The notes under the pieces are model-generated. The model worked only from the letters and a program-made list of their open reading frames with translations, did no database searches and was not told the DNA's origin. This document shows positions 4,585 through 32,933 of a stretch of DNA of 54,764 bases, piece by piece. The stretch is from a virus. Lineage: Duplodnaviria; Caudoviricetes. The stretch spans positions 1 to 54,764 of the IMG/VR virus record IMGVR_UViG_3300025769_012369; one strand, written 5' to 3'. The position numbers and the translations under genes are program-made. Every line of letters starts with the position of its first letter. The stretch's first letter is position 1.

Positions 4585-4588
4585 TGCG

Positions 4589-5035
4589 TCAGATCACCGC
4601 CTGGTTGTCTCCCTTCCACATGCTGGTGCGTGCGACGATGCTCGGTTTCGGTGAACCGATGACCTCGTCCTCGGGCGTGATTGCTTCCTCGATCTCAAAG
4701 TCACCACGCGCCACCGCCTGCAGCAGCATACGGCCTTCCCTGGCTGCGTCCTTGCGGACACCGTCGGGGTCGATGATCACGCCACCGGCTCGGGACATGA
4801 TCTGCATGATGATCAGGGCGACCACGGCGCGGATCAGTTTGCTCGGGATGGTCAGGCCGTCCTCCAGGGTGAACTGCTTGGCGATGTAGCCTCGCGCCTC
4901 GTCCACAACGTCGGTGATGGTTTCGGCAATGGGGTCGTCGTCTCCGACTCCCACAACTGCCGCACGAAACGCGCTCAGTTCTGCATCGCTGAGCTGCCTT
5001 TCGATGTCCGCTTCGGTAATCGTTCGCCAAGCCAT
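4589..5035 (-). CDS. Mu gp36-like head-tail connector (DUF1320-like)
   Basis: MAWRTITEADIERQLS...DEARGYIAKQF...LLQAVARG resembles the gp36 family; follows the capsid gene. Start placed at ATG 5035, downstream of the terminator. Confidence 0.75.
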   Translation of the reverse strand: MAWRTITEADIERQLSDAELSAFRAAVVGVGDDDPIAETITDVVDEARGYIAKQFTLEDGLTIPSKLIRAVVALIIMQIMSRAGGVIIDPDGVRKDAAREGRMLLQAVARGDFEIEEAITPEDEVIGSPKPSIVARTSMWKGDNQAVI

Positions 5036-6903: not shown

Positions 6904-8373
6904 TCAGATCTGCTCGACGACTTCTTTCTGAGCCATTGCGAACGCACGGCGGTAGGGCACCCGCAGGCTGGCCTGCAGTTCCTTCGCCCGGTTGGCGATC
7001 TTGTTTGCATTGGTGGTCGCCTGGGTGCTGGCCTGGTCCTTGGTCAGCTCGGGCGCGGCGGGCCGCTGTTCGCGGTTGTAAACCGGCGCAGGCCGGTTCG
7101 CCTTGGTCGTCGGTTTCTTCGCCTTGATGGCCTTCAGGAGCTTGATCGTGCCGGTGCGGTTGGCCAGGAGCTGCCTGCGCATTTCCTGGGGGTCACCGAT
7201 CACGGATTCATAGTCCTTCAGATCGCGCTCGACCAACTCGTTCAGCATTCCGCTGTTGCGGTTGCGAAGCCGGTTGACGTATTCGTCCTTCTCCTCATCG
7301 TCCATGTTGGCGATTTCCTCGTCGGTCGGGTCGTCCTCGCTGTTCATCACCTTGTTGGGGTCTTCTTCTTCCCCAGGGGTGGCCATGTTGGCGGTGGGAT
7401 ACTCAAGCTCCTTCGGGTCTGTCTTGGGCGGCGTGGGTTTCTGCTGCTGCGCCATGTTGGACATGGTGCCATCGACAGCGGCCTGAACCTGCTCGTCGGT
7501 TGCCTCTGGTGGGAGACCGAGCAGGGACAGCAACATAGTTCTGTAGTCCATGGTATTTTGGTTCCTTACGGGTTTGCTCGCTCCGCAGTTGGGTTCCACT
7601 GAGCGGTTGTCGTTTGACAAGGGCACCATGCCCTTGAGGTTGGGGTCATTGGTCAACGCCAGGCTGTCCAGGCGCAGGGGACGCAGGCGACCATTTCCTG
7701 CATCCTCCATCTCGTCGCGCAGCCATACCGGCGACACAAGACGATAGTCTCCGTTCTCGACTGCCTCCCGGCCGGTCTTTGACCAGCGGATGCGTGCCCA
7801 GAGTCCATTCGGCCGGTTCTGCATCGCGGTGATCCAACCGGCTGCACGGCTCTCATGGTTCACGTCCAGGCTGAAGTGGTCGAAGTCGACCAGCACGCCT
7901 GGGAAGTTGGGTTCCTTGGAGGCTTTTCGGAAAGCGTTCAGCATTGCACCCATCGCTTGTTCGTCGAGTAGTTGTTCGGTGCCGCTCTCTCGGTGGGTGA
8001 ACTGCCCCTTGGGTGCGATGTGGTACCAGCCGTCTTTCGGGAGGCTGAACCCGTCCTGGGTTCCCTGGTCCCGATTGATCAGGGTGCACTTGCCAGTCAT
8101 GCAGTCGGACCGGCCTCGGTTGGCGATCTTCCGGTTGCGGAGTAGGGCGCGGGCAAGGCGGGCCTGATGAGATTCGTTCTGTGGCGTTGTGGCGGGCTTG
8201 GGCTGTGGTGTGCCCTGGGAACGGTTGCGAAGCCGTGTCGCGCCCGTGGGGACGCCGGAACCGGCCCCCTGGTTGATCGTGGGGGCAATGGAACGGGTCT
8301 CCTGGTCCACGGGCTGCGTGATCGACCGGAATCCGGTCGTTCGCTGTGGGCCTTTGAATGCCGTCTTCTTCAT
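6904..8373 (-). CDS. Mu I-type prohead protease with C-terminal scaffold
   Basis: VLVDFDHFS, AAGWI, LWARIRWS...YRLVSPVW, LALTNDPNL protease motifs, then LLGLPPEATDEQV and an acidic/helical scaffold region. Confidence 0.88.
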   Translation of the reverse strand: MKKTAFKGPQRTTGFRSITQPVDQETRSIAPTINQGAGSGVPTGATRLRNRSQGTPQPKPATTPQNESHQARLARALLRNRKIANRGRSDCMTGKCTLINRDQGTQDGFSLPKDGWYHIAPKGQFTHRESGTEQLLDEQAMGAMLNAFRKASKEPNFPGVLVDFDHFSLDVNHESRAAGWITAMQNRPNGLWARIRWSKTGREAVENGDYRLVSPVWLRDEMEDAGNGRLRPLRLDSLALTNDPNLKGMVPLSNDNRSVEPNCGASKPVRNQNTMDYRTMLLSLLGLPPEATDEQVQAAVDGTMSNMAQQQKPTPPKTDPKELEYPTANMATPGEEEDPNKVMNSEDDPTDEEIANMDDEEKDEYVNRLRNRNSGMLNELVERDLKDYESVIGDPQEMRRQLLANRTGTIKLLKAIKAKKPTTKANRPAPVYNREQRPAAPELTKDQASTQATTNANKIANRAKELQASLRVPYRRAFAMAQKEVVEQI

Positions 8374-10040
8374 GCTTCTGCAGTTTCCATTCCGTTGAAC
8401 AGTTCGGCCGTCATGGCTCGCTCCATGACCTTTGCGGACTGCGGTTCGGTGTTGATCTGCTCGAGTATGGCGGGAAGCTCGGCCTTCAACTCTCGGAGTT
8501 TTTTATCACGTTCACGCACATCGTCAATACGCATTATTGCCTCGATCCGGTTGCGGACCGGCTCCAGGTCGTGCGCCATCGCTTCACCTACCTGGTCTCT
8601 TGCGGTGCGTTTAATTCGTTCCCCGGCCTCCAGTTGGCTCGACCGCTCTATGGCGCGGAGTTGGTTCGCAAAGAACCGTTCCAGCTTGGCGGCGGTCTGT
8701 TGGTGGCCCTGGGGAACCTCCTTACATACTTCCCGAAACAGTTCCATCGCACGCTTGTTGCGGAACTGCAGCCCTGGGGCGGGGCTGAGATTCGCCCCGG
8801 CTTGCGCCGGGACTGGGCTTGGGGCTGCACCGGGGAATCCGCTTTCCATGCCAGGACCGCCCGCCGCGTTCTCCTGACGGGTCAGCTTCAGGCCCGTTTT
8901 CTCCGACACCTCTGCGGCGTCGGCCTGCAGTCCTGCGCCCGAAAGTGCGACGACGTTGTCGACCAGCTTTTGCGTGTCCTCCACGTCCTTTGCCGCAAGC
9001 TCAAAATAGACAAACGGCTCAGGGGCATGTGGGAACTTCTCCATGATGTGGAGGTCAAGCAGTTGGGACTGAATGATCTCGCTGATCTCTGCAGCCTCCG
9101 CAATGGCCAGTTCGTCGAACGTGTCCATGTGGGAATCGCTTTGCCCGCTCCCCAGGCCGGTCGGTTCGTTCAGGACGGTCAGTTTCCCGCTTGTCCCGGC
9201 CAGGACAATCTGCTGGTCCTGATAGTCGACATGGTCACGGAACGGGTTCATGCCGCGCTCACCGTCCTTGATGGTGGCAACGGTGGCACCGTTTGGCAGG
9301 ACACCGCGTGCGTCACTGATCACTTGGTCGGCGAAGTCCTGCCACTCGGCAATGTTCTTGTTCTGGCTGCTGTTCTCCGGTAGCTGGATGAAAATCGGGG
9401 GGATGCCAAAGGTCTCGATGAACCCGTCCCAGTCTTTCTGCGACAGGTTCTTGCGCATGTGGGCGATGGCGGCGATCTCGTCAATGGGGTCGTCCACTTC
9501 TCGGATCACGAAGCCCACCGGATTGATGGGTACCCCGTTGTTGCTGTTGGCGAGCTTGTCGAACCTCCAGCGGTTGTCAGGGAACCGCTTGCACCAATGC
9601 CAGTGTGGGACCGGCTCCAGGTGGTAGGGCAGGCCGTCGTTGTCCCAGTGTTTCTCCAAGTGGCTGAACCCTCGGAACTCCGCCAAGGCCAGGTGGTCGA
9701 TGGCTTCCTTCAGGTTGTCGATCCCCTCCAGAAGCTCGCGAGCATAGGCTGCTTGGTCCTCGGCCATCTGCTTGAACTGGAACTTCACCCCGGTTGGGTC
9801 CAGCACGTCGCTGTTGATCTTGATGTCCCAGTCCAGTTTCTTGATCGCGGCCTGTCTGCGCTTCTTGACCGCTCGCAGGGTGGCGTCCCGTTTCTCGATG
9901 AATCTGAACAGCCATTGCAGTTCGGAATACCATCCGCGCTCAGCCGCTTCCAGCAGGTAGCCGACTCGCAAAATGGTCAGGCCACGCAGCGGGTTGAACT
10001 GCTGCCGCCAGACCATGAAACGCTTCTGATACAAGTTCAC
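8370..10040 (-). CDS. Portal protein (Mu gp29/DUF935-like)
   Basis: 556 aa between TerL and protease; RGFSHLE, DWDGFIETFGIP and GLGSGQSDSH motifs resemble DUF935 portals. Confidence 0.85.
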   Translation of the reverse strand: MNLYQKRFMVWRQQFNPLRGLTILRVGYLLEAAERGWYSELQWLFRFIEKRDATLRAVKKRRQAAIKKLDWDIKINSDVLDPTGVKFQFKQMAEDQAAYARELLEGIDNLKEAIDHLALAEFRGFSHLEKHWDNDGLPYHLEPVPHWHWCKRFPDNRWRFDKLANSNNGVPINPVGFVIREVDDPIDEIAAIAHMRKNLSQKDWDGFIETFGIPPIFIQLPENSSQNKNIAEWQDFADQVISDARGVLPNGATVATIKDGERGMNPFRDHVDYQDQQIVLAGTSGKLTVLNEPTGLGSGQSDSHMDTFDELAIAEAAEISEIIQSQLLDLHIMEKFPHAPEPFVYFELAAKDVEDTQKLVDNVVALSGAGLQADAAEVSEKTGLKLTRQENAAGGPGMESGFPGAAPSPVPAQAGANLSPAPGLQFRNKRAMELFREVCKEVPQGHQQTAAKLERFFANQLRAIERSSQLEAGERIKRTARDQVGEAMAHDLEPVRNRIEAIMRIDDVRERDKKLRELKAELPAILEQINTEPQSAKVMERAMTAELFNGMETAEA

Positions 10041-10072
10041 GCTTCAGGGAGTAACATTCGGGGCACAGCGGG

Positions 10073-11599
10073 TCAAGTGTAGCTTCGGTCCCGCCGCTTG
10101 CTCAGGGATCGGCCCCGCCGCCCTGGGGTGCTGGTCGGGATAGGTGGGTTCACCTCGCTCGCAAGGTAGTTGAAGGCCCCGCTCACACCGTCCACCTGGT
10201 CGTCGTTCTCGCTGGCTGGGAAGGCCTCCAGCTCCATCTCGAAATCGGGAATCCACGGGCCGCGCACCAGGAACACCTTGCCCTCCTTGGCAGCGGCAAA
10301 CAGGCTCAGGCACCGGGTTAGCTTGTCCTTGTTCACCTTCACCGATACGCACGGCACCTGGGGCGGTAGGACTTCGACCAGGTTCTGCCGGGCTGCTTCG
10401 AATCCACCCACGGCCTCCATCGCGATGACGTGTTCCTCCTGCTGCGCGATCTCGGCGATCTTGTCCCGTGCGACCGGCCAGGTCCACTTGCCCTTGGTGA
10501 TGCCGAACACGTAGAAGCGGCCGTCCCGGTCCATCGCGCACCTGGCTCCCGCGGTGAAGTCGTTCTCCTCTTTTTCGTCGGTGGCCGTGTCCCAGAAGCG
10601 CACCCACCGCAGGCCCTCGATGGGCATCTCGTCGGCGTTGATGTGCTGCAGCCATTCTAGCTTGCAGTAGTTGCCGCCCTTGATCACCGGTCGCTGCCGA
10701 TACATGGCGGTCCAAATGTAGTCCAGCATCGTGGCTTGGATCAGCTTCAGCTCCTTCAGCGGCCAGCGGTTCGGGTCCAGGGCCTCCCCTGGCTTGCGCC
10801 CCATTAAGTCACCTTCCTCAGCGATGGCGGGCAAAATGATCTCCTCCCAAGTCTCGGAGTCGGGGTCGATGTCCGCGTCCTCTAGTCGGGCCTTGATTTC
10901 TTCCTGGCGCGACGGGTCAAGGAAGCGGCCGACCAGGTCATCTTTGTGCCAGCGGGTCATGATGATGATCACCACGCCCCCTGGAGACACACGGGTTCGG
11001 CCGGTCGACCAGTACCAGTTCCAGATGCGTTCACGTTCGCTTGCGCTGTGGGCGTGCGCGTAGTCCTTGAACGGATCGTCAACAACCAGGACATCGCAGC
11101 CTCTGCCGGTCAGTGTGCCCTGGGTGCCGACTGCCAGGTATCGCCCACCGTCCTGGGTTTGCAGGTCGTTCTTTTTCTGGGTGTGCTTGGACAGCCTGCT
11201 GTCGGGGAACGTCGCCTTGTATTCGGGCGAGCGCATGATCTCACGGCACTCGACGGCGTGATCCTGGGCGAGGTCGCCCGAGTGCGAGACCATCGCGAAC
11301 TTGAGGTTGGGTCGCTTGCCCAGTGCCCAGGCCACAAACTCGATGGCGGTCAGGCGGCTCTTACCGTGCCGGGGAGGCACCGAGATGATCACCCGCTTGT
11401 GGCCCTTGGCTGAGTTTGGCCCGATGGAATTGAAAACGTCGTGCAGGACTTCGGCCAGGAACTCATGGAAACCGCTGACCTCGTAGGCCGGGTCATGCAG
11501 CTTGGTGAAGGTCAGCAGGTCGTTCTGCGCCTTGGTCCGTATCCGGCCTGCCGTGGTTGGGACCGGCTCAGTGGTTGCCGTTCCCGTTGCCATTGCCAT
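10073..11599 (-). CDS. terL: Terminase large subunit
   Basis: Walker A VPPRHGKS, Walker B LVVDDP, IMTRWH, nuclease motifs RFWDTA and DDQVDGVSGA. Confidence 0.95.
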   Translation of the reverse strand: MAMATGTATTEPVPTTAGRIRTKAQNDLLTFTKLHDPAYEVSGFHEFLAEVLHDVFNSIGPNSAKGHKRVIISVPPRHGKSRLTAIEFVAWALGKRPNLKFAMVSHSGDLAQDHAVECREIMRSPEYKATFPDSRLSKHTQKKNDLQTQDGGRYLAVGTQGTLTGRGCDVLVVDDPFKDYAHAHSASERERIWNWYWSTGRTRVSPGGVVIIIMTRWHKDDLVGRFLDPSRQEEIKARLEDADIDPDSETWEEIILPAIAEEGDLMGRKPGEALDPNRWPLKELKLIQATMLDYIWTAMYRQRPVIKGGNYCKLEWLQHINADEMPIEGLRWVRFWDTATDEKEENDFTAGARCAMDRDGRFYVFGITKGKWTWPVARDKIAEIAQQEEHVIAMEAVGGFEAARQNLVEVLPPQVPCVSVKVNKDKLTRCLSLFAAAKEGKVFLVRGPWIPDFEMELEAFPASENDDQVDGVSGAFNYLASEVNPPIPTSTPGRRGRSLSKRRDRSYT

Positions 11600-12291: not shown

Positions 12292-12777
12292 TCAAGCCAA
12301 TGGGCGGCACGTGGCCTGCACCTTCCCATCTTCGGTGCCCTTAATCTCCACCTGGATAATCGGGATCGTCTCGCTGTTCACCACCGCAACCAGGCGTTCG
12401 CGCATCCACGCACCCACGGGGTTGCGCTCGATCTCCCTGGTGATGGACTCCACCGGGACGCCCTCACGTTCTGCCCATGCCAGGGCGTGTTCGGTTGCCT
12501 GCTGGTTGATGGTGCCCAGGACGCGGTTCATGGTCTGCAGGGCCTGCATCTGCATCTGCTGCAGTTGGCTCCCTACATGCCGAAAGCTCGGGTCAGCAAA
12601 CGGTCCAGGAATTCCTCGCTCGATGCTGGGCTCTCCAGCTTGCGCTTCGCCGCCCGCAGGCTGGCTTGGTGGTGCTTGTTGAGCGGGATCTTCAACAGGA
12701 TGTCGGACTCGCCCCTTGCTTGCGTGGTTTTCGGCTGTGCCGCTTTTGGTTTCGGTGTTGGTTTGTATCCCTCCCAT
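12292..12777 (-). CDS. Hypothetical protein (start uncertain; may begin near 12555, MQMQALQ)
   Basis: Fills the gap between the ParB-like gene and TerS; the longest version overlaps the ParB-like gene by about 205 nt. Confidence 0.5.
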   Translation of the reverse strand: MGGIQTNTETKSGTAENHASKGRVRHPVEDPAQQAPPSQPAGGEAQAGEPSIERGIPGPFADPSFRHVGSQLQQMQMQALQTMNRVLGTINQQATEHALAWAEREGVPVESITREIERNPVGAWMRERLVAVVNSETIPIIQVEIKGTEDGKVQATCRPLA

Positions 12778-13196
12778 GAGAATCCTTTCAGTGCTGCGAT
12801 GCCTTGTCGTTGTTCGTCAGTGAAGGGCATTGCGGCTTGAGGCATCACCCGGTCCAGCTCTGCCAGTCGAGTCGCCAGTTCGATGTCGTTTGCGTCGTGA
12901 TTGGTCTCGTTCGTGATGATCGCAATCTGCTCCGCTTCCTCGGTGTCGATCTGACCAAGGTCGAAGCACATGGCTTTCTTGAGGCCCACACGGCGCATGG
13001 CCTGCAGGCGGTGGTTTCCGTTCACCACCTCCCAAGTGCCGTCCCCCATGTCCCGCACGATCAGGTTCTGCACCTGGCCGTCCTCACGGATTGCTTGCTC
13101 CAGGCGTTGGGCCATGAAGGCATCGTCGTCCTTGTAGTTCCAATCGGCCGTGCGGAGCTTGTCCAGGTCGATCCATCGTTGTTGCTCAGTCTGCAT
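12573..13196 (-). CDS. ParB/Srx-like domain protein (copy 2)
   Basis: ADWNYK...EDGQVQNLIVR...VVNGNHRLQAM (ParB N-terminal GxHR motif). Confidence 0.85.
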   Translation of the reverse strand: MQTEQQRWIDLDKLRTADWNYKDDDAFMAQRLEQAIREDGQVQNLIVRDMGDGTWEVVNGNHRLQAMRRVGLKKAMCFDLGQIDTEEAEQIAIITNETNHDANDIELATRLAELDRVMPQAAMPFTDEQRQGIAALKGFSWEGYKPTPKPKAAQPKTTQARGESDILLKIPLNKHHQASLRAAKRKLESPASSEEFLDRLLTRAFGM

Positions 13197-13839
13197 TGAT
13201 CACCTCCAGTGCCTTGAGGAAAAAGGCCTCGTCGTCTTCGATGCCCGCCTCCTGCTTGGCGATGTCCCAGCGGTCGGCCAGTTCCCCGGTCAGGGTGGCG
13301 TCGAAGGTGGGGTCTCCCGTGGCTTTGTCCTTCTTCAGTTGGCCGGTGCCTGGGTTGGGTTTGTAGTCCTCGAAAGTCATGGATGCCATCGCGGCCATGT
13401 CGTTGATCTGGTCGGGCGTGTAAGGCATCGCGGCCTCCAACTCCCCCATGCCGGTCTCCTTCATTCTGGCGACAGCCCGGTTCAGCTTGATGTCGTTGCT
13501 GGGGAAGCGGGTGTGGTTCAGCTTGATTGCCTGGGCGATGGCGACCTCCCGGTTCACCCGGCCCAGGTTGTAGACCCATACCTGCGCCCCTGGGGTCATG
13601 AGCTGCAGCCGGTGGTTGCCGTTGCAGACCTCCAGCTTGCCGTCCTCCAGCTCTCGGACCAGCAGAGTCTCGATCTGTCCCAGGGTCTTGAGGGATGCGG
13701 CCAGGGTGCCCTGCAGTCGCTCGTTGGTGGTCTTGTAGTTCCAGTCGGCCGGAACCAGGTTTTCCACATGCACGTTCAGGTAGCCCGTGTCATAGGTGGC
13801 CTCGGCCGGGGAACATCCGTCTTTAGTGTCGTCAGTCAT
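13186..13839 (-). CDS. ParB/Srx-like domain protein (copy 1)
   Basis: ADWNYK...LGQIETLLVRE...VCNGNHRLQL; paralogue of the adjacent gene. Confidence 0.85.
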   Translation of the reverse strand: MTDDTKDGCSPAEATYDTGYLNVHVENLVPADWNYKTTNERLQGTLAASLKTLGQIETLLVRELEDGKLEVCNGNHRLQLMTPGAQVWVYNLGRVNREVAIAQAIKLNHTRFPSNDIKLNRAVARMKETGMGELEAAMPYTPDQINDMAAMASMTFEDYKPNPGTGQLKKDKATGDPTFDATLTGELADRWDIAKQEAGIEDDEAFFLKALEVINAD

Positions 13840-14380
13840 TGCGCTTGCTCAGTTTCAAGTAAATCAGAGTGCAGACCACGCCGCCCAAGAACTTGCTCCC
13901 GGCCTGTCCGGCGCAAAGCATCAGGCTCGGGTCATCGAAGGCCAGGAAGGGGAACACCAGGCTGTCAACCGTGGCGGCGAACAGGTTACTGACGTTCATC
14001 TTGAACCACCTGGCTGTGTGGGGGCCGCACATGGCGTAGACGACGGTATTCATGATCATGGCGCAGGCGAACGCGACCGTGCTTGCTAAGGCGATTCGGC
14101 CGGCGTCCTGGTTGACCAGGTAGGTCAGCACTGATCCCATGGAGACCAGGCCAAGCATCTTTGCCCAGAGTCCCCGGCTCTCCCATCTGCGGTGCAGGAC
14201 ATCCCGCACCAGCATGTCGAAGGGAATGAGAATCCAAGCGGTCAGGAGCAGGGCGGGCTGACCCCATTCTTGGACGGCCAGATTTGCGCCCAGGATCGCG
14301 CCCAGGAAGGCGAGAACCAGGGGGGCCGCTGTGAGCAGGCCCCCCTGGTCGTCCGATTGCTTAGAACGCGAATCCGTCAT
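13832..14380 (-). CDS. VUT/YhhQ-like 7-deazaguanine (queuosine precursor) transporter
   Basis: Multi-TM hydrophobic protein with ANLAV, IPFDMLVRDVLH, RIALAS and NVSNLFAATVDSLVFPFLAF; in the que/dpd operon; ATGA-coupled start at 14380. Confidence 0.75.
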   Translation of the reverse strand: MTDSRSKQSDDQGGLLTAAPLVLAFLGAILGANLAVQEWGQPALLLTAWILIPFDMLVRDVLHRRWESRGLWAKMLGLVSMGSVLTYLVNQDAGRIALASTVAFACAMIMNTVVYAMCGPHTARWFKMNVSNLFAATVDSLVFPFLAFDDPSLMLCAGQAGSKFLGGVVCTLIYLKLSKRND

Positions 14381-14814
14381 CCCATCTTGTGGGCTTTCAG
14401 GTGCGCCAGGTGGGTGTGGGCCTCTCCCGTGGTCTTGCAGGCTTCGGCCTGGTCGCAAAGTCGGCGCATGTCCTTCACCCGGGCAGTGAAGACACCACCC
14501 CCGGCTTCCAGCTTGTTCGCTTCGCTCCGCACCCGCTCGATCTCGCCCTTGAGTTCGTCGGACAGGGCCGCGTCGGCTTTGGAAAGCTCGGGGTCAGGGG
14601 TCGGCTCGGTCTCGGCCTCCTGGGTGTCCGGCTCATCCTCAACCTGGGGCTTGTCGTCGGTGGGGTCGTTCTGCACGGCCGCAAGCTCCTCGGTGGGCTG
14701 ATCGGTTTCAATGTCCGCGTCTCCTTGGGTAGTTCCCTCGGGCTGGGCCGGACTGATCTCGTTCTCGGCATCCGTGGTCGGTGCCGCCTCTTTAGTCTTC
14801 TTTTTCTTGCTCAT
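14377..14814 (-). CDS. Acidic, largely disordered hypothetical protein
   Basis: MSKKKKTKEAAP followed by a D/E/P/T-rich tract; ATGA overlaps with neighbours at both ends. Confidence 0.7.
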   Translation of the reverse strand: MSKKKKTKEAAPTTDAENEISPAQPEGTTQGDADIETDQPTEELAAVQNDPTDDKPQVEDEPDTQEAETEPTPDPELSKADAALSDELKGEIERVRSEANKLEAGGGVFTARVKDMRRLCDQAEACKTTGEAHTHLAHLKAHKMG

Positions 14815-15752
14815 GCTGCTGTCCTTTCTGTTGCCCAAAGGGACCGGACTGGTTCCCCTGAGTAGTGCCGGGCGTTTACCCAGCGGTTCATTTTGTTCAT
14901 CTCCGAGACCTGCACCGCGTTGGCGAATGCGTAGGACTTGGAAGCGTCGGTCAGCTCTTGGTAGCCCTCGTCGGTCAGTCGCCTCAGCCTGGCATCGTAG
15001 AGCGGTCGTTTCTCGTTCACCAGGCGTTGGAACTCAGTCTGCCGGGTGCTGATCGTGTGGAGCCTGCCCGATGATCGGAACAGGAACCCACGGCCGAACT
15101 TTCCAGGGGCAATCCAGGATGTCGAGTCGCAGGTCGTGAATCCTGGTTGCATCAGTAGGGTCGGCTGTGTGCAGCCCAGCAGGTGGATCTTCACATTGGG
15201 TCGGATGTCCCTGGCCTTGCCGATCATGGACTTGACCGCCGTCTCGATGTGCTTCGGCCCTTTGCAGATGATTCTCAGCTCGGGGATGCTGATCGCGACG
15301 TATGGGTATTGCCGGACCAGGTCTCCCCAACCGGTTTCACCTTCTTCCAGGTGCCACACGAAGATGGTCCGCTCAGGTGCCCACCGCTTCGCAAACACGG
15401 CTCGGAGCTTGGCCAGGCTTTCCAGGCCCAGGACTTTATGCACATCCATCTCGACAACGGTGCCCTGGTAGCCAATAGCCTCCATGTCGTCCAGGTAGGT
15501 GTGGGTATAGGCCTCCAGCTCGTCGTGTGTCCGCTTCACTCCCTTCTCGGCTCCGAACATCATCGTGAACAGGCCGCTGTCCATGATCCACTCGGCCCCC
15601 ATTCGCATGAGCTTTTGGTAGGCCCGGCCGTAGGTCTGGGCGTCCCGGCCGCGCACGGTGTTGTAGTAGCTCGTCAGCATGTAGGGGTGGTCAGCCATTG
15701 CTACCATCCACATGAAGTTCAGGCTGTCCGCTCCCGCGCAGAACAGCTTCAC
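14811..15752 (-). CDS. dpdA: DpdA-like 7-deazaguanine DNA transglycosylase (TGT fold)
   Basis: GTGA-coupled start (MKLFCAG); WIMDSGLFT, VEMDV, FVWH, KIHLLGCT and CDSTSW motifs of TGT/DpdA paralogues; in an operon with folE/queD/queE. Confidence 0.8.
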   Translation of the reverse strand: MKLFCAGADSLNFMWMVAMADHPYMLTSYYNTVRGRDAQTYGRAYQKLMRMGAEWIMDSGLFTMMFGAEKGVKRTHDELEAYTHTYLDDMEAIGYQGTVVEMDVHKVLGLESLAKLRAVFAKRWAPERTIFVWHLEEGETGWGDLVRQYPYVAISIPELRIICKGPKHIETAVKSMIGKARDIRPNVKIHLLGCTQPTLLMQPGFTTCDSTSWIAPGKFGRGFLFRSSGRLHTISTRQTEFQRLVNEKRPLYDARLRRLTDEGYQELTDASKSYAFANAVQVSEMNKMNRWVNARHYSGEPVRSLWATERTAA

Positions 15753-16114
15753 CGGATCACCTCCACGATGGCCCCGTTCTCCCCGTCCTCCATGACCTCG
15801 CAGCGGTCCAGGTCGAACTGGTTGGTCAGCCAGTGCGCAATGTGTTCGCACGATAGGGGGCCGAAGTCGCACGGCCGTCCAAATTCGAACTCCAGTTCAT
15901 TGGTTACTTTGCGGCCGAACTCGATGATCTCGATCTCCCGGTTCGCATACTTTACCCGCTTTTCGACGCGGATGTGGAACAGGTGCCGATGCTCCGCGCA
16001 AAGATACTGATGCTGTTCTCGTGCCCCAGGCCAGTTGTGGAAGCCTTCGACCTTAACCGTGGCCACGATGGAAGTCAGGCCGGTGCCGGGGATTTTGTTC
16101 GGGTCGGCGTTCAT
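15749..16114 (-). CDS. QueD-paralogous T-fold protein, DpdL-like (putative CDG decarboxylase)
   Basis: 121 aa; [16 protein letters not shown] (LxxxHRHxF), SCEHIA and EDGENGA motifs. Confidence 0.7.
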
Positions 16115-17025
16115 TTCAGCATTGAGTAGAATTCGGCCCGTGCGGCCGGGTCGGCTTTGAACAGTCCAGTCAACGCGCTGGTCTTCATGACGCTGTTCTG
16201 CTTGCGGACTCCCCGGCAAACCATGCACTGGTGCTTGGCCTCGATGTGGACCGCCACACCCTTGCACTTCTCAAGGTTGTCCCCGATGGCCTGGGCGATC
16301 TGCTGGGTCATCTGTTCCTGGATCTGCAGGCGGCGTGCGTAGGTGTCCACCACGCGGGCCAGCTTGCTCAGTCCGTAGACCTCTCCCTCGGGGATGTAGG
16401 CCACATGCGCGGTGCCGGTGAAGGGCAGCAGGTGGTGTTCACAAGTGCTGTGGAACTCGATGCCGGTGCAGACGACCATCTCGTCGGCGTCACTCTTGAA
16501 CTTGGTGCCCAAGACTTCGGCCGGGTTCTCCCGCATCCCCTGGGTCAGTTCCAGCCAGGCCTTGATCACGCGCTTGGGTGTGTCGCGTAGGCCCTCCCGG
16601 TGAACGTCCTCCCCGAGGAACTCCAGGAGTCTCACGACCAGGCTCTCGGCGTCCTGCGTTGGGTGTTCCTCCCAAGGGAAATGCACCCATCCAAGGTCTG
16701 GCTCTTTGAGCTTGTCGACCAGGGCCAGGAAGGGCTTCCCAGGGTGCAGCGTTCGCGTGCGACCGCTGTCGATGATGTCATCCACAAAGGCGTCGGCCAC
16801 TTCAGGTGTGCGGGCGATGTGAATGCCGTGCCGCTCATGCAAAAGGCCCGCGACGATTGCGCCTCCCCTGGGGATGCCGTAGACCATTGGCGTCTGGTCG
16901 GCCGGTAGCTTCAGGTGCTGCAGCTTGACCAGGAGCTGATCCAGTCGCTTGTTGATGTCGGCCCAGGTCAGGACGTTGATTACAGGACTTTTGTCAGCTT
17001 GTGCGTCTGCACGCTCAGTTTCCAT
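16111..17025 (-). CDS. folE: GTP cyclohydrolase I with N-terminal type I phosphoribosyltransferase-like domain
   Basis: FolE motifs [35 protein letters not shown]-terminus LTWADI...YGIPRGG...[11 protein letters not shown]...WVHFPWE resembles xanthine/guanine PRTase. Start uncertain (17025 or 17043). Confidence 0.92.
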
Positions 17026-17567
17026 TGCGGGTTCTCCAGGCATAGGTCGATGCAGTGTTTCAGGTTGGCGGGGTCCGGCTGGTCGCCGGTGAACATGGGG
17101 GACAGGTAGTAATGGTCGGCCTCCAGCTTGGCCTTGTCCGGCTCAGGCACTCCAGGCTGTCCGGTGTGCCGGACATAGCGCAGTTCGTGAACGTGGCCCT
17201 TGAAGTTCTTTGCGACGACGTGGTCGGCCACCTTGGGGCTGCACGCGACGTGGTCCAGGACTAGGTCACCGATGGGCTGGCTCCCGTTTGTCTCGAGGGC
17301 CTGCTTGTATCCGGCAGCGCGGAACAGTTCGACCGTCTCTGCCTTGAGTTGCAGCAATGGCTCTCCCCCGGTCCAGACGATCCACTTCCCAGGGTGCTTG
17401 CTGATTTCCTTCAGCAGTTCCTCGTCGGTGAACTCCCGGCCGCTGTTGAACTCCGTGTCGCAAAAACCGCACGCCAGGTTGCAGTCAGCCAGTCGAATGA
17501 AAATCGACGGGTGCCCGGCTCGGAATCCTTCGCCCTGCAGGCTGTAGAAAATCTCGCTGACCTTCAT
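16980..17567 (-). CDS. queE: 7-carboxy-7-deazaguanine synthase (radical SAM)
   Basis: [20 protein letters not shown] (CxxxCxxC), [20 protein letters not shown]. Confidence 0.95.
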
Positions 17568-18037
17568 CGTTTCCAGGGCCTCCAGGCTGTCGCGCTGTTC
17601 TTCTGGTCTTCGTAGAGCTTGATGCTTTGCACCCAGGCGCGGCCGTCAGTCTCCTGGGACACCAGGGCGGTGAAGTTGTCCAGGAACCACTCGGCCAGGC
17701 CTTCACAGGAACAGTCCGTAACAGTGGTCAGTTTCAGGAAGCTCAGCGGGGTGCCCTCGTTCCAGTTGCCCAGTGGACCGATCAGGGGATCGGTCTCGTT
17801 CAGAACCAAGGCGTGGTCAAAGTGCTTCTCGATGTATTGCTTCAGGTAGCCCAGCCCGCCGAAGTCGACGACGAAACCGCAGGCGTCCCGTTCCTTGGCG
17901 GCGAACGTCACTTCGATGCTCCAGTTGTGGCCGTGGATGAATCGGCAATGCCCGGCATGGTTCGGTTGCCGGTGTCCAAACGGTATGTCGGCGAACAGCT
18001 TCGTGCAGGTGATGATCGGCTTGTCATTGTCTTGCAT
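17564..18037 (-). CDS. queD: 6-carboxy-5,6,7,8-tetrahydropterin synthase
   Basis: GHR...HCRFIHGHNW, VVDFG, FDHALVLN, SCEGLA. Confidence 0.93.
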   Translation of the reverse strand: MQDNDKPIITCTKLFADIPFGHRQPNHAGHCRFIHGHNWSIEVTFAAKERDACGFVVDFGGLGYLKQYIEKHFDHALVLNETDPLIGPLGNWNEGTPLSFLKLTTVTDCSCEGLAEWFLDNFTALVSQETDGRAWVQSIKLYEDQKNSATAWRPWKR

Positions 18038-19746: not shown

Positions 19747-21474
19747 CTACGCAAACAGTTTTTTCAGGACCATCTGGGCGGTGATGTTCCCGGCCTGCTT
19801 ACTGGTCATGTCCTCGGCCTCCCCGGCGATGACCTGACGGATCACCCCGCGTTTGGATTCCAGGAGGTCGTCGATGACCTTGTCGATGTCGAAGGCTTGA
19901 AGCCAGATCGCGGTCACGGGCCTGGTCTGCCCGATGCGGTTCAGCCGGTCCTCGGCCTGGTCCGCGTCTCCTGGGGTCAGTGGTCGGTCGTGCAGAATTG
20001 CGTAGCAGCCCGCGGTCAGGTTGATCCCGACTCCTCCCTTGTCGTGCGTGCAGACGAATGCGGGAAGCTGTTCGGCTTGGAAGTCATCGACCACCTTCAT
20101 GCCGCCCTTGTAGTCGCCGTCGAAGCAGGGCACGCCCAGGGCCTTCGCGATGGTCTTCGCGCTGTCCTTGTAACTGGTGAAGATCACCGGCCGGTGGTTC
20201 TGTTCCATGATCTCCCCGGCCAGCTCCAGGGTGGTGTCGATCTTGGCCTGGCTCGCGGCCTTGCGGATAAAGGTCATAAGGGCGAGTGCGCCCCCGGCTG
20301 AGTCGATAGTCCCGGCCGCAACGCGCTTCTGGTATTCGGTCTCGGCCTGGCGGTAGATGGTCTCAAACTCTTTGCGCATCTTGGGTGTCACTTCGACCTG
20401 GGCGATCTGCCGGGTCTTGGCCGGGAGGTCCAGCACGTCCTCCTTCATGCGCTGCAGCAGAACGGGCTTGATGCGTCGATGTAGCTCGGCCGTGTTGGAT
20501 GCGCCCCCGGTGTCCCAGACTGAACGCGGGTTCTTAGTTCGCTGTTTGCACTTGCCGCAAGTGATCTCTTTTGTCCTGAAATTGTATCGCTGCCGGTTGT
20601 GGTTTCCGCATGGCTTGCATGACCATGTTATCCAACCATCCTCGACCGTTGCCCGGCCGTAAGTCACCTGCTTGGCTCGACAATACTTCTTCTCAAACTC
20701 GCGCTTGTTGATGGAAAGGGGATGCCCTACCGCCCGCAGGAGTGGGAACAGGTTGACCGGCTTCCCGTTCTTCATGGGTGTGCCGGTCAGCAGAAAGGCG
20801 TATTTTGCAAGCCCAGCAAGGGCCAGGAATCGTTTTGTGCGCTGGCTGGCTATGTTCTGGGCGAAGTGGGCCTCGTCTGCGATCAGAACGAATTCTCGCT
20901 CCCTGGCGTTGCGCTGGGGTATCTTGGCCCAGGAGTGGACCGCGACGACCGGGTGCGCCACCTTCTCGACTTCCTTGCGCCAGTTGTCGATCAGGCGGGC
21001 CGGGCAGATCACGACGGTGTGCAGGCCATCGCGTTTGTAAAGGATGCGGGCAGCGACCAAAGCTTGCCTTGTCTTGCCCAGGCCCATGTCGTCGCCCAGG
21101 ATTCCCTTGCGGACTCCAAGCAACCAGGGGATTCCAAACCGCTGGTGCTCGTAGAACCCATTCCCGTCTGCCTGGGTCTCGTTTAGCGTGGCCAGCACAT
21201 CCGGCGATTCGTCGAGCTTTGCCGCCTGAAGGACTTCGTTCAAGTCGTCGGTTTGCTTCTGCACCGCGTCGTTGAAGTCGACCGCCCAGGATGCATCCCC
21301 AAACTCCGTGGCGACATCCAGGACGGCGTCCATTGGATACTCCCACACGTTGCCGTTGAAGTTCCGATACTGCCGGAACCGCCCAGCGAGTCGTCGCGCC
21401 CTGGCGACCAGGTCGGGAGTCGGGTCAAAGGCGACGGCCACCTTGCCATCCTTGAGGCAAACTACCGCCGCCAT
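19747..21474 (-). CDS. SNF2-family ATPase (SMARCAL1/HARP-like) with Zn-ribbon insertion
   Basis: LGDDMGLGKT, LIADEAH, LLTGTP, GGVGINLT, QAEDRLNRIGQ; CKPC...CGKC insertion; HARP-like N-terminus. Confidence 0.9.
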   Translation of the reverse strand: MAAVVCLKDGKVAVAFDPTPDLVARARRLAGRFRQYRNFNGNVWEYPMDAVLDVATEFGDASWAVDFNDAVQKQTDDLNEVLQAAKLDESPDVLATLNETQADGNGFYEHQRFGIPWLLGVRKGILGDDMGLGKTRQALVAARILYKRDGLHTVVICPARLIDNWRKEVEKVAHPVVAVHSWAKIPQRNAREREFVLIADEAHFAQNIASQRTKRFLALAGLAKYAFLLTGTPMKNGKPVNLFPLLRAVGHPLSINKREFEKKYCRAKQVTYGRATVEDGWITWSCKPCGNHNRQRYNFRTKEITCGKCKQRTKNPRSVWDTGGASNTAELHRRIKPVLLQRMKEDVLDLPAKTRQIAQVEVTPKMRKEFETIYRQAETEYQKRVAAGTIDSAGGALALMTFIRKAASQAKIDTTLELAGEIMEQNHRPVIFTSYKDSAKTIAKALGVPCFDGDYKGGMKVVDDFQAEQLPAFVCTHDKGGVGINLTAGCYAILHDRPLTPGDADQAEDRLNRIGQTRPVTAIWLQAFDIDKVIDDLLESKRGVIRQVIAGEAEDMTSKQAGNITAQMVLKKLFA

Positions 21475-21638
21475 GTCAGGCGCAGGAGTTTGCCGCACCA
21501 GTCAAACGGCGCGGCGATGGCGATCATCATCCACATGATCAAATAGAACAGGAACCAGTCGAAGCGGCTCCAGTGCGCCCCATAGTTCTCAATCGCAATG
21601 CGGTCCTCTGAATCGTTGGGGTCGTAGCGGTGCTTCAT
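21462..21638 (-). CDS. Small membrane protein
   Basis: MKHRYDPND...WFLFYLIMWMMIAIAAPF hydrophobic segment; ATGA-coupled start. Confidence 0.5.
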   Translation of the reverse strand: MKHRYDPNDSEDRIAIENYGAHWSRFDWFLFYLIMWMMIAIAAPFDWCGKLLRLTWRR

Positions 21639-24331: not shown

Positions 24332-25333
24332 CTAATTGGTGTAATTCAGTGCCGCCATGTCCTCCAGCTTGAGGTCGCCGGTCAGGATGGCCTGGGCGGT
24401 GCCGAAAGCCCGGCCCTTCACCCTGGCTCCGTCCGTCATCCAGGACCGTTTGAAACGGCAGGTGTCTTCGCGCAGGGCCTTGACGTGGTCCTCGTATTCG
24501 GTGACGGCGTTGTACGCGGCCCAGAGCGTGCCCCTGACGCCCTGCAGGTCCATCCCGGTTCCGGTCTCCCAGAGCCTCATCAGCTTGGGCTGTGCCTGCC
24601 ATACCGGACCGGCGCACGCGGGGCGGTCGTAGACTGAGCGGATAAAGGCCTCGGCCTTGGCGTCGTTCATCTTGACCCTGGTCATGGCCTGAAACACCTC
24701 CGTTGTGGCCTTGAAGTATTCCCGCGCCTCCTTGAGCATTTCCCCGGCCCGCTCGACGGCGATGCCGACGTTCTTGCGGTGCGGGATCTTGACCCAGTTT
24801 GAATGCTCCTGCAGTGCGGCCGTCAGCGTGTTCCAGCACACGACTCGGCCCGAGCAGAACCCGGTCAGGACTGAGTTCACCCCGTCGTGCCCGTTGGCAA
24901 TCAGCATGTATTGACGAACGATGTCGTCGGCGATAATGGCGACCTCCTCCTTGAAGCGGGCAAGAATCCAAACCTGTCGCCCTTCGTCCAGAACCCCGGC
25001 CGTCTCAAAGGTGATCTCCCCAGACTCCTTGAACGGGTTGAAGGCGCGGAAGGCGTCCACGTTCTGCAGCACCTCGTAATCCTTCTTCACGATGCCCAGG
25101 ACAGACTGCCCAGCGGGCTTGTCGTCTCGGTGCGTGGCCCAGTGCGTCGGCACGCTGACCACTTCTCCGTCATCCGCGCCGTCCACGTAAAGGGTGCGCT
25201 TGCTGACGGTAAAGCCCAGGCCCGCCTTTTCCATGCAGTCCTCGACCGTGTTGCATTCCTCGACCACTTCGCCCTTGCCGTGCCAGGGCACGATGTTGGA
25301 AGCGGACATCATTGTTTCTACTTTGTCACTCAT
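24332..25333 (-). CDS. DUF932/DUF945-like phage/plasmid protein (TIGR03299-like)
   Basis: VPWHGKG, YEVLQNVDAF, ETAGVLDEGRQVW, NGHDG, RVVCWNTL, GTLWAAYNAVTEYEDH. Confidence 0.85.
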   Translation of the reverse strand: MSDKVETMMSASNIVPWHGKGEVVEECNTVEDCMEKAGLGFTVSKRTLYVDGADDGEVVSVPTHWATHRDDKPAGQSVLGIVKKDYEVLQNVDAFRAFNPFKESGEITFETAGVLDEGRQVWILARFKEEVAIIADDIVRQYMLIANGHDGVNSVLTGFCSGRVVCWNTLTAALQEHSNWVKIPHRKNVGIAVERAGEMLKEAREYFKATTEVFQAMTRVKMNDAKAEAFIRSVYDRPACAGPVWQAQPKLMRLWETGTGMDLQGVRGTLWAAYNAVTEYEDHVKALREDTCRFKRSWMTDGARVKGRAFGTAQAILTGDLKLEDMAALNYTN

Positions 25334-25457
25334 GTCGTTTTGTCGTTGTCTTGTCTCCTGGATCGCCAGGCCGTGTTCCGTTGTGGAATGCCAGCACCTT
25401 CCAAACTTCCCCCGCTGTGCCAACCTTGAATTTGGGCAGTTCACTGTTCGCGCTCAT
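25326..25457 (-). CDS. Small hypothetical protein (43 aa)
   Basis: MSANSELPKFKVG...; fills the gap between genes. Confidence 0.35.
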   Translation of the reverse strand: MSANSELPKFKVGTAGEVWKVLAFHNGTRPGDPGDKTTTKRHE

Positions 25458-28634: not shown

Positions 28635-29513
28635 CTATCTGCCAAAGTATTCACCCCGCGTCTCTGCTCGGCGGGACTTGCCCTTGAAGTCCAGCAGGTG
28701 CGCCGATGCTCGAAAGCGGTCGGCCATGCGTGCCCCGATTGCTTCGGCAAGCTCTGCCCTGTTCAAGTTGGTGGTCAGCACGGTCTTCATTCGGTGGCCG
28801 TGCCGGTAGTCGAGGATTTCATGAATCAGTGGCAGCTCGTCGCGGTAGCCTCCCCCGGTGCCAACGTCATCGAGCACCAGCAACTTGGTCTGCTTGAAGG
28901 TGTCGACAATGTTCTGGCTTTTGCCGGTCCCATAGTTCGCCCTGATCTTGCTCAACAGCTCGGTTTGGGTGCGGAACGTCCCGCCTCGGAACTCGCGCAT
29001 GATGCACACGGCGGCGAAGGATTTCCCGTTCCCGTAGATCGGGCCGGACAATACCAGGAACCCGGCGCGGCCGGTGGCGAATTTCTTGCAATGCTCCAAC
29101 AGCTTGGCCTCGTCCACGTCCCGGCTTTTCCAGGTCTCCCAGGACGCGCTTGCCAGGATCTCGGGAACCCCGCATCGGATCAGCCATGCGTTGCGCTCCT
29201 TGGCCTTCTGCTCCTGCTGGCAAAGCTCGCACGGTAGGTGAACGATCCTCACCCGGTCCCCGGCCTCCCTGGTCTGCAGGACGGATTCCCGGTCGTTGAT
29301 GCTCCTCATTTGTCCAGGGTGCTTGTTGCACTCCTTCTTCACCAGGCCGTGCTGACCCGCGACTCGGTAGATCGTTTCGAGTTCGTGGCGGCTTCGTTCA
29401 GCAATCGCGTTGAGTCTGCCCAGGGCTTCCTCCAGGGATTCACTGACCGGCTCGGGGTCCGGTGTGGGCTTGTTTGGCTGTGGATCAGGTCCAGGCGGTT
29501 GAGTCGTGTTCAT
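28635..29513 (-). CDS. DnaC/IstB-like AAA+ helicase loader
   Basis: CNKH...CELC Zn motif, Walker A SGPIYGNGKS, Walker B LLVLDDVG, TTNL, RMADR; follows the replication initiator. Confidence 0.88.
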   Translation of the reverse strand: MNTTQPPGPDPQPNKPTPDPEPVSESLEEALGRLNAIAERSRHELETIYRVAGQHGLVKKECNKHPGQMRSINDRESVLQTREAGDRVRIVHLPCELCQQEQKAKERNAWLIRCGVPEILASASWETWKSRDVDEAKLLEHCKKFATGRAGFLVLSGPIYGNGKSFAAVCIMREFRGGTFRTQTELLSKIRANYGTGKSQNIVDTFKQTKLLVLDDVGTGGGYRDELPLIHEILDYRHGHRMKTVLTTNLNRAELAEAIGARMADRFRASAHLLDFKGKSRRAETRGEYFGR

Positions 29514-30303
29514 TGTCGTTGTCGTTGTCGTTGTCGTTGTCTTGTGGTGTTGCAGTGTGGGTAATGGCTGTCGGGAAATCAAGTTTCAGTTTCCTGACGT
29601 TGGTTAGAAACCCCGCAATGCTGATTGAATTGTCGATGTGGATCGGGCACCGGCTCTTGTTGGTTCTTCGACGCGACCAGGCCAGTTTCGCGAGTAGGAT
29701 CAACTCCCCCGGTGGGGTGGTGTTGCGCTTGAAGTAGATCGCGGCCTGTCCCGCGTCCTTGCCGTCGACATCGTAGGCCTGGCCCTGCTTCTCCAAGTAT
29801 GCGTCCACCCACATGCCGATGAACTCCTTCGCTCGCCCTTGGGCGGGCGGTTCCTTCTTATTACTGGTTCCCTCATTCTTATTAACATGATGTCTCGCAA
29901 GATGTGGTTTTTTCACGATGTCGGTCTCCAGATCGTGGATTTCAACATCTGGTTTTTTCGCCGTCTTGATGTAGATCGGTGAGTCGCTGACCAGGTAGAC
30001 CCAGCGGACGATTTTGCCTCCATCCTCCTTCTCCTTGGTCAGCTTGATGTAGCCCGCGTCCCGTAGTTCCTGGATGGTCTTTCGGGCGGTGTGTTCCTTC
30101 ACCTTGCTGCGCTTGCAGATGTCGGTCACGTTCATGCGCCAGTTCCCCGGCTTGCCCAGCAGGTAAGCCATAAGGCCCTTCGCCTGCAAAGATAGCTCTG
30201 GGTTTTCGGTGATGGTCTTCGGTACGCGTGCGAACGGGTCTTCGCTGCGCTTGTCGATCCTGATTGTCGATTGACGGTCTTTCTCGGCTGTGCTCTTGTT
30301 CAT
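29485..30303 (-). CDS. Phage replication initiator (N-terminal wHTH)
   Basis: FARVPKTITENPELSLQAKGLMAYLLGKPGNW...IQELRDAGYI; upstream of the DnaC-like gene. Confidence 0.8.
   Translation of the reverse strand: MNKSTAEKDRQSTIRIDKRSEDPFARVPKTITENPELSLQAKGLMAYLLGKPGNWRMNVTDICKRSKVKEHTARKTIQELRDAGYIKLTKEKEDGGKIVRWVYLVSDSPIYIKTAKKPDVEIHDLETDIVKKPHLARHHVNKNEGTSNKKEPPAQGRAKEFIGMWVDAYLEKQGQAYDVDGKDAGQAAIYFKRNTTPPGELILLAKLAWSRRRTNKSRCPIHIDNSISIAGFLTNVRKLKLDFPTAITHTATPQDNDNDNDNDNEHDSTAWT
29514..29545 (-). repeat. (GACAAC)n hexamer repeat in the initiator/DnaC overlap
   Basis: Minus strand ACAA-GACAAC x4-GACA-ATG; encodes DNDNDNDNDN in the initiator and forms the leader of the DnaC-like gene. Confidence 0.9.
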
Positions 30304-30333
30304 GTGTCAGTGCGATGTGTGTTTCAGTTGAAG

Positions 30334-30368
30334 CCCCGGCAGGTGGACACCCTGCCGGGGTCTTTTTT
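30334..30368. terminator. Hairpin with the T-tract on the plus strand (antisense or bidirectional terminator)
   Basis: CCCCGGCAGG-TGGACAC-CCTGCCGGGG-TCTTTTTT on the plus strand, between the sulfotransferase and initiator genes. Confidence 0.55.
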
Positions 30369-32864: not shown

Positions 32865-32933
32865 TGTCTTGTCTTGTTGTTGAAAGGGCCGGGAGCGTGA
32901 ATGCCCCCGGCCCAGGTTGTGGTTGATGGTGGA

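Follow-up and report, generated by a model that had tools for sequence, protein, structure and literature searches.

Phage gene clusters for 7-deazaguanine DNA modification have been described before, and those nearest to the one considered here are the Queuovirinae clusters of PaMx25, NP1 and VpKK5 and the DpdL-type clusters of Hutinet et al. 2023, which share its content and its order: queD, queE, folE, queC or dpdL, dpdA and sometimes yhhQ. The pathway scheme in the main texts of the published accounts places no extra domain on FolE, and the word "phosphoribosyl" is absent from those main texts, whose supplementary tables might mention such a domain (PMC10516641, PMC10484667, PMC5699537). 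The scheme, which consists of FolE, QueD, QueE, QueC or DpdL, and DpdA, is also silent on the guanine that is expelled and the guanosine triphosphate (GTP) that is consumed. Here, we analyze a 54,764-bp IMG/VR virus record that looks complete (IMGVR_UViG_3300025769_012369), the whole of which we call the window, in which FolE carries a small phosphoribosyltransferase (PRT)-like domain at its N-terminus, hereafter the N-domain. A literature search found no description of a PRT-FolE fusion or of guanine salvage with DpdA. The PRT fold and the 7-deazaguanine pathway are known; the minimized Gpt-like domain in a recurrent fusion appears to be new.

Three kinds of described PRT-fold proteins bear comparison with the N-domain. 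The best match in both sequence and structure is the xanthine-guanine phosphoribosyltransferase (XGPRT, or Gpt) of E. coli and Yersinia (structures 1a95-1a98, 1nul, 4jls, 5xtk and 6kp5), which has the same type I fold and whose RGG pyrophosphate (PPi) loop, DD..D.G.T phosphoribosyl pyrophosphate (PRPP) loop, K115, W134 and QPWD all have equivalents in the N-domain. XGPRT is a free-standing protein of 152 residues, whereas the N-domain is about 120 residues long, is fused to FolE and has lost loop II and about nine residues of the hood. PyrR and PurR have the PRT fold too, and in them its nucleotide or PRPP pocket serves sensing; the N-domain has no RNA- or DNA-binding part and a sequence much nearer to that of Gpt. 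Finally, TubE and ToyH of the tubercidin and toyocamycin pathways, which were compared by description only, belong to the PRT family and have FolE, QueD and QueE encoded alongside them. As described in PMC6112128, TubE is a separate protein of 194 residues from an actinomycete secondary-metabolite cluster without DpdA, in contrast to the phage clusters, which nearly always contain DpdA.

Identity of the domain ahead of FolE

Judged by profile homology and predicted fold, the N-terminal ~120 residues of the fusion protein, which FolE follows at once, are a homologue of enterobacterial-type XGPRT pared to its catalytic core. A profile built from 76 N-domains cut out of loci found XGPRT 5xtk at 1.4e-10 and E. 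coli XGPRT 1a98 at 1.3e-9 in the PDB, with HPRT reaching merely 8e-4, and the alignment to 1a98 runs end to end (profile positions 2-110 against chain residues 2-140). For the N-domain, AlphaFold given 74 sequences produced a model with a predicted local distance difference test score (pLDDT) of 92.0 and a predicted template modeling score (pTM) of 0.80. When this model was compared with known structures using Foldseek, Yersinia and E. coli XGPRT came out on top (6kp5, 2.7e-5), followed by other purine PRTases, with 31 matches at E ≤ 1e-3; VIA-align against 48,161 chains likewise ranked XGPRT first (Z 10.5), and the eight chains with Z ≥ 8 were six named PRTases, PyrR and 5vog. The PRT fold on which an earlier, sequence-only reading of this locus as a purine-PRTase-like domain fused to FolE depended is therefore present in the model.

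Searches with the single N-domain sequence were much less sensitive. The Pfam PRT family PF00156 missed its threshold of 26.3 bits, scoring 13.1 bits (E 0.059) over a match of only 10 residues; XPRT chains in the PDB were found at E 0.033-0.036, the PHROG family phrog_8995, annotated "phosphoribosyl transferase", was matched at 1.4e-6, and an NCBIfam search with the N-domain alone returned no family at E ≤ 0.1. Among 144 aligned sequences, comprising 143 relatives and the window's own domain, 17 match PF00156 at E ≤ 1e-3. The N-domain thus has the PRPP motif and the alpha/beta core fold of a type I PRT and lacks loop II and a Pfam score above threshold; it has the whole-chain homology and the aligned base-pocket residues of XGPRT and lacks the full ~152-residue architecture. 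Because of its two deletions relative to that architecture, we do not class it as an orthologue of Gpt.

The deletions and the retained motifs can be placed on the XGPRT chain, with residues of the fusion protein counted from the ATG at 17043. The PRPP motif spans residues 85-96, in which a hydrophobic strand is followed by two acidic residues and then D.G.T. In the profile alignment, D92 falls on XGPRT D92, W119 on W134 and FPWE on QPWD; in XGPRT, K115, W134 and D92 have base-pocket roles. About 20 XGPRT residues of loop II are without a counterpart, and in the model about eight residues (77-84) bridge strand 2 and the PRPP strand. The hood is about nine residues shorter than in XGPRT, and the window's copy has lost another four or so residues, relative to the family consensus, from the helix that comes after the PRPP loop. 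The sequence-only reading had listed YGIPRGG, a PRPP loop and WVHFPWE ahead of the FolE core and had described the loops as shortened relative to XGPRT; the motifs were found again in the ORF and codon by codon on the DNA, and the shortening corresponds to the deletions in loop II and the hood. A natural PRTase-like domain of about 120 residues without the flexible loop would also be a test of what type I PRTs require for catalysis.

The ligand site is under strong purifying selection. Across 74 full-length homologues, 30-64% identical to the window protein, P58, G60, G61, D88, D89, I90, D92, G94, T96, W119, P123 and E125 do not vary, and conservation is at least 90% at R59, K111, F122 and W124. 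Every column that is invariant over the whole alignment lies inside the PRT motifs, and the same pattern holds in 144 representatives at 50% identity. To compare pockets between pathway types, we used 146 unique domains, of which 96 come from clusters with QueC, 30 from clusters of the DpdL type and 20 from loci in which neither was detected. No ligand-site column differs between QueC-type and DpdL-type domains; only I90/L90 does, and K111 occurs at frequencies of 0.92 and 0.97, respectively. Since the pocket is alike in the two types, its ligand should be one that they have in common, such as guanine, a guanine nucleotide, PRPP or 7-carboxy-7-deazaguanine (CDG).

The FolE half is that of a canonical GTP cyclohydrolase I. 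It scores 237.6 bits against PF01227 (cut-off 27) and 226.1 bits against TIGR00063 (cut-off 181.6), exceeds the cut-offs of the NCBIfam FolE models, and has CEHH, GLSK and KHQCM; CEHH and H.C are the zinc and catalytic motifs of FolE. In an AlphaFold model of the full-length fusion protein (pLDDT 94.1, pTM 0.86), there is no linker, and the N-domain is joined directly to the first FolE helix (residues 128-142), on which it packs rigidly. This model is of a monomer and cannot reveal a neighboring subunit standing in for loop II.

Ahead of M53, which sits just before the PPi loop, the frame offers two start codons only, ATG 17043 and ATG 17025. The codons read from the DNA place a GGAG 8 nucleotides upstream of the second, ATG 17025, and no GGAG-type site upstream of ATG 17043. 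Because of this GGAG, and because the database gene call for the protein (P0001) is the 304-residue form that begins there, ATG 17025 is most likely the start of the fusion gene. The sequence-only reading had considered that the true folE start might lie downstream of the domain, which is not what we find: with M53 as the next in-frame start, such a start would need internal initiation that cuts the domain.

Recurrence, gene neighbors and other partners

Well over a hundred viral clusters for the 7-deazaguanine modification of DNA carry the PRT-FolE fusion. A word-indexed protein search gave 160 proteins at E ≤ 1e-3, and among the 120 of these that were listed, 116 carry PF01227 and only 2 a precomputed PF00156 match. 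When 1.84 billion representatives were searched exhaustively with HMMER, 451 proteins came in at E ≤ 1e-3, 60 of them at E ≤ 1e-10. In GenBank, 32 phage records carry the PRT domain, every time under a folE gene, from Pseudomonas (PaMx25/NP1-like), Vibrio (VpKK5-like), Stenotrophomonas, Xanthomonas and Variovorax phages; the 4.3-kb cluster itself had no megablast match among GenBank phages. Two scans of IMG/VR added 80 and 75 further loci, with three contigs fetched twice (L002/L050, L006/L087 and L014/L147), and loci were annotated with profiles made from genes of the window and of three annotated phages. A single frame free of stops holds both PRT and FolE in 82 of 84 loci of the first set and in all 75 of the second (157 of 159 viral loci), in agreement with the fusion proposed from the sequence, and in the two split loci the PRT gene still lies immediately upstream of folE. 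A conserved PRTase-like domain on FolE in more than 100 viral clusters looks like a pathway component that is missing from the published scheme.

The sequence-only reading had suggested a survey of the fusion against dpdA and DpdL. We detected DpdA in 77/84 and 64/75 loci; where at least 5 kb is available on both sides, it is present in 46/47 and 19/19 loci (65/66 together), with L038 as the exception. The fusion occurs with both QueC-type and DpdL-type clusters. The expected association with dpdA was thus seen in viruses, but the fusion is not tied to DpdA alone, as the chromosomal copies described below indicate. GTP cyclohydrolase and, in viruses, DpdA are the steady partners of the mini-PRT.

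The mini-PRT is also found with other partners. In P0141, a protein of 564 residues from a 6,664-bp JGI contig, it is followed by a segment of about 160 residues of unknown nature and by FolE2 (PF02649, 4.7e-59). This fusion involves the other family of GTP cyclohydrolase I and is independent of that to FolE. It is joined to a DpdA-like segment in P0242 (264 residues, two contigs; phrog_887, 7e-11), to a MazG-like pyrophosphatase in P0248 (2.9e-28), to a PNK-like C-terminal domain in P0209 (1e-17), to a second PRT domain in P0148, and to a Cys-rich unknown tail in P0021, P0045 and P0166. Short mini-PRT proteins that retain just the first FolE helix also exist, and 32 of them were aligned. When standalone mini-PRTs were sought in IMG/VR with this alignment, all 75 new loci were FolE fusions. 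Truncated gene calls may account for part of the short forms, with P0009 and P0113, for instance, looking like frameshifted fusions.

A scan of one genome per species gave at least 11 loci, 6 of which lie in chromosomes of Dehalococcoidia/Tepidiformaceae metagenome-assembled genomes; 5 of the 6 are FolE fusions. Their neighbors include CoA-transferases, a 2-oxoacid:ferredoxin oxidoreductase, YebC, Ada, a peptidase, a cyclophilin, an enoyl-CoA hydratase and a thiolase, in at least three differing gene contexts. The possibility that these copies are prophage-borne was rejected given such ordinary metabolic neighbors. Nor is the fused gene the sole FolE of these bacteria, since a second, canonical FolE (205-254 bits) is present in 5/5 genomes. 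Four of the five fused copies were aligned (L160, L166, L167 and L168), and in these the FolE half is degenerate: CEHH has become CERH, CENH or CEKH and GLSK is lost, and all PRT motifs are intact. Each of the five genomes has 6-7 PF00156 matches, none of which reaches the cut-off of the Hpt model TIGR01203 (best 44.9 bits against 150).

Annotation pipelines mostly miss the domain, which falls below the Pfam threshold and is obscured by a wrong frame in PaMx25. In the PaMx25 record (JQ067084.3), over 3877-4807, a 125-residue "hypothetical protein" coding sequence (3877-4251) is called in another frame over the PRT domain and folE is annotated from an internal Met, yet the PRT domain shares the frame of folE, in a single ORF without stops (3905-4804). 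The record is probably mis-annotated here.

Selfish elements are located in the fusion gene in some relatives. P0178 (583 residues) has an intein with an HNH domain within FolE, and in L038 (8473-9432) PRT is a separate gene and the folE ORF after it begins with a stretch in which an HNH-like motif was spotted by eye. Fused ORFs of about 600 residues were seen in L007 (7992-9794) and L061 (7887-9635).

Possible functions of the N-domain

We consider it most economical, at a probability of roughly 45%, that the N-domain is a 6-oxopurine (guanine) PRTase that returns a base to the GTP pool, because its closest relatives are Gpt enzymes and the aligned base contacts are retained. The N-domain would bind a 6-oxopurine (guanine, perhaps xanthine or hypoxanthine) together with PRPP and form guanosine monophosphate (GMP), which host Gmk and Ndk would convert to GTP, the substrate of FolE. 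Each base exchange by DpdA would release one guanine, and the incoming 7-deazaguanine would cost one GTP, so the fusion would return the released base to the precursor pool. Removing guanine might also clear a possible competitor of the incoming base from the DpdA exchange. Fusion would give 1:1 co-expression and would place the PRT domains on the FolE oligomer. If guanine is indeed salvaged in this way, the mass balance of the pathway is closed, and the exchange reaction may be pulled forward. The fusions to FolE2, to a MazG-like protein and to a second PRT domain, which point to a link with the GTP cyclohydrolase step and with nucleotide metabolism, are in keeping with guanine recycling, as are the near-constant company of DpdA in viral loci with full flanks, the joining of the mini-PRT to a DpdA-like segment in P0242 and a pocket that is the same in QueC-type and DpdL-type clusters. 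On present comparisons guanine recycling fits best.

Several observations weigh against guanine recycling. The window's own domain is below threshold for PF00156, and flexible loop II is deleted; type I PRTases shut this loop over the transition state, and HGPRTs deprived of it have a much lower turnover number. The fusion joins enzymes that are not consecutive: GMP is two kinase steps from GTP, and for this reason substrate cannot be channeled directly between the two halves. Among the 402 phage records in GenBank that match FolE, only 32 carry the PRT domain, and characterized 7-deazaguanine phages such as 9g and CAjan do without it. The association with DpdA is a weak test, given that the loci were picked via the PRT domain and that the frequency of dpdA beside PRT-less phage folE provides no baseline. 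No DpdA or QueCDE was found within 8 kb of the six Dehalococcoidia/Tepidiformaceae loci, and at the sixth of them (L164) the PRT domain is present with FolE not detected. Thus, guanine released by DpdA cannot be the sole rationale for the fusion.

The alternative that stands up best, although we regard it as unlikely, is that the N-domain is a ligand-binding module whose pocket takes up a guanine nucleotide, PRPP or (p)ppGpp and thereby tunes or stabilizes the GTP cyclohydrolase to which it is joined. There is a parallel in the way PurR and PyrR use PRT folds, and among the top VIA-align matches are 5vog (Z 9.7), a structure titled as a hypothetical protein with bound ppGpp, and PyrR 1w30 (Z 8.6); PurR 1o57 scores Z 4.7. 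The loss of loop II would suit a binder, as would the rigid packing of the domain on the FolE N-terminal helix in the full-length model (pTM 0.86), the retention of the first FolE helix in "standalone" forms, and the persistence of the domain on Dehalococcoidia paralogues with no DpdA nearby. Fusion to both FolE and FolE2, which are reported to differ in oligomeric state (PMC5699537), would make the GTP cyclohydrolase step itself the link. However, a pure binder need not keep every aligned catalytic and ligand-contact residue, and these are all invariant, including D92 and the RGG loop. The MazG-like, PNK-like, second-PRT and DpdA-like partners and the short proteins also suit an autonomous enzyme better. 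Nucleotide sensing, if true, would make this the first regulator of the phage 7-deazaguanine pathway.

A second alternative, to which we give somewhat less credence, is that the N-domain is a 7-deazapurine PRTase like TubE or ToyH that joins CDG or preQ0 to PRPP, yielding a 7-deazaguanine ribonucleotide beside or instead of the DpdA exchange. The loop-less mini-PRT would then be a phage counterpart of TubE/ToyH on the surface of the FolE oligomer, acting on CDG or preQ0 and not on guanine, a proposal that we likewise think rather improbable. The window cluster shares the logic of such pathways, with FolE, QueD, QueE, a DpdL candidate and no QueC, and CDG is an intermediate common to QueC- and DpdL-type clusters, with which a constant pocket is compatible. 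Against this, the nearest relatives of the N-domain are Gpt-type XGPRTs and not HPRT-like proteins, and the Asp aligned to XGPRT D92, a residue that contacts the purine N7, is invariant even though 7-deazapurines have no N7. In addition, DpdA, a user of free base, is present in 65 of the 66 loci with full flanks, and would face competition from a PRTase for that base. The window phage also has no polymerase of its own to favor a modified deoxynucleotide.

The biochemical precedent comes from TubE, shown to be a CDG-specific PRPP transferase, whose cluster has FolE, QueD, QueE and a decarboxylase but no QueC (PMC6112128; bioRxiv 10.64898/2026.04.15.718813). TubE is a precedent for the other option raised in the sequence-only reading, conversion of 7-deazaguanine to its nucleotide for incorporation during replication, where it was not cited. 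The published view, as given in PMC10516641, is that DpdA was identified in all phages with these modifications, which implies post-replicative insertion, and DpdL is modeled there as acting on the base. If the N-domain does act on CDG or preQ0, the pathway would gain a nucleotide branch and a scheme of base exchange only would be incomplete; many DpdA phages would then run a nucleotide-level route that feeds a host or phage polymerase or serves as a pool sink.

Guanine recycling was preferred in the sequence-only reading on the ground that the phage has no polymerase. For the window this stands, as the record gives no family A (PF00476) or family B (PF00136) polymerase match. Its replication-type genes are helicases and loaders of the DnaD-like and DnaC-like kinds. 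Relatives with the same fusion encode DNA polymerase A, however, so that the lack of a polymerase cannot be what favors guanine recycling.

That there is no real fusion, the upstream stretch being a separate small gene or non-coding and folE starting downstream, could draw on the internal folE start and the overlapping "hypothetical protein" in the PaMx25 record and on the 2 split loci among 159, but it is very improbable given the continuous frame in the other 157, the position of the PaMx25 PRT domain in the folE frame with the annotated hypothetical coding sequence in another, the choice of only two ATGs before M53 in the window, and the PRT gene directly upstream of folE in both split loci, in one of which (L038) the folE ORF has an HNH-like stretch.

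The gene cluster and the rest of the window

The fusion gene is part of a tightly packed minus-strand operon that encodes, in order, QueD, QueE, PRT-FolE, a DpdL candidate, DpdA, a small acidic ORF and a YhhQ-like protein (Table 1). The YhhQ/Vut_1 family includes the E. coli preQ0 transporter, and among the loci YhhQ-like matches were limited to L035 and one locus of the second set. The DpdA N-terminus, VKLFCAG, aligns with the MKLFIAG and MRLFIAG starts of annotated relatives. The DpdL candidate, a QueD paralogue, has no Pfam match, and a single-sequence search against the PDB found only a hypothetical protein at E 0.056. It contains LCAEHRHLF, which matches LxxxHRHxF, the published DpdL signature that replaces CxxxHGH of QueD (PMC10516641). 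Because of this fit and because no QueC match was found in the window record, the cluster is assigned by its sequence features to the QueC-less, DpdL-type 7-deazaguanine class.

Table 1. Coordinates of the fusion gene, its motifs and its neighbors in the window, with the related bacterial loci in the last row
Feature	Position	Strand	Basis and remarks
PRT-FolE fusion gene	16111..17025	-	304 residues; ORF, ribosome-site reading, database gene call
Longer form of the fusion ORF	16111..17043	-	310 residues from the alternative ATG at 17043
Minimal XGPRT-like type I PRTase domain (predicted)	16669..17025	-	Residues 7-125; AlphaFold, Foldseek, VIA, profile against PDB
PPi loop, P58-R59-G60-G61	16861..16872	-	Aligned to XGPRT S36-R37-G38-G39 (1a98); invariant or near so
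PRPP/5'-phosphate loop DDIIDSGRT, D88-D89-I-I-D92-S-G-R-T96	16756..16782	-	Aligned to XGPRT D88-D89-L-V-D92-T-G-G-T96
K111	16711..16713	-	Aligned to XGPRT K115; at least 90% conserved
WVHFPWE, W119-V-H-F-P-W-E125	16669..16689	-	Aligned to XGPRT W134-I-E-Q-P-W-D140
FolE (GTP cyclohydrolase I) core	16117..16644	-	Residues 134-309; PF01227 8.1e-71; CEHH, GLSK, HQCM intact
QueD (PTPS family)	17564..18037	-	PF01242 7.7e-22
QueE (radical SAM)	16980..17567	-	PF04055 5.2e-8 and own QueE profile; 3' end overlaps fusion start by 46 nucleotides
DpdL candidate (QueD paralogue)	15749..16114	-	phrog_17812 6.8e-24; ATG overlaps FolE stop as ATGA
DpdA (DNA 7-deazaguanine transglycosylase)	14811..15752	-	phrog_887 1.5e-19; likely GTG start 15752, directly after DpdL stop
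Highly acidic low-complexity ORF, 153 residues	14377-14838	-	Between dpdA and the YhhQ-like gene; IFT57 E 0.004 only, sub-threshold
YhhQ/Vut_1-like membrane protein	13832..14458	-	PF02592 5.7e-10; cluster end
Bacterial fusions L159, L160, L166, L167, L168	about 7970-8940 each		Genomes G001-G005

Other minus-strand genes of the window, at 19747-21498, 24332-25444, 12573-13196 and 28635-34847, encode a SNF2-type helicase, a DUF932 protein, a ParB-N protein, the DnaC-like and DnaD-like loaders, a large helicase (phrog_1967) and an SbcC-like protein. A Mu-type portal and a terminase lie at 8370-11599.

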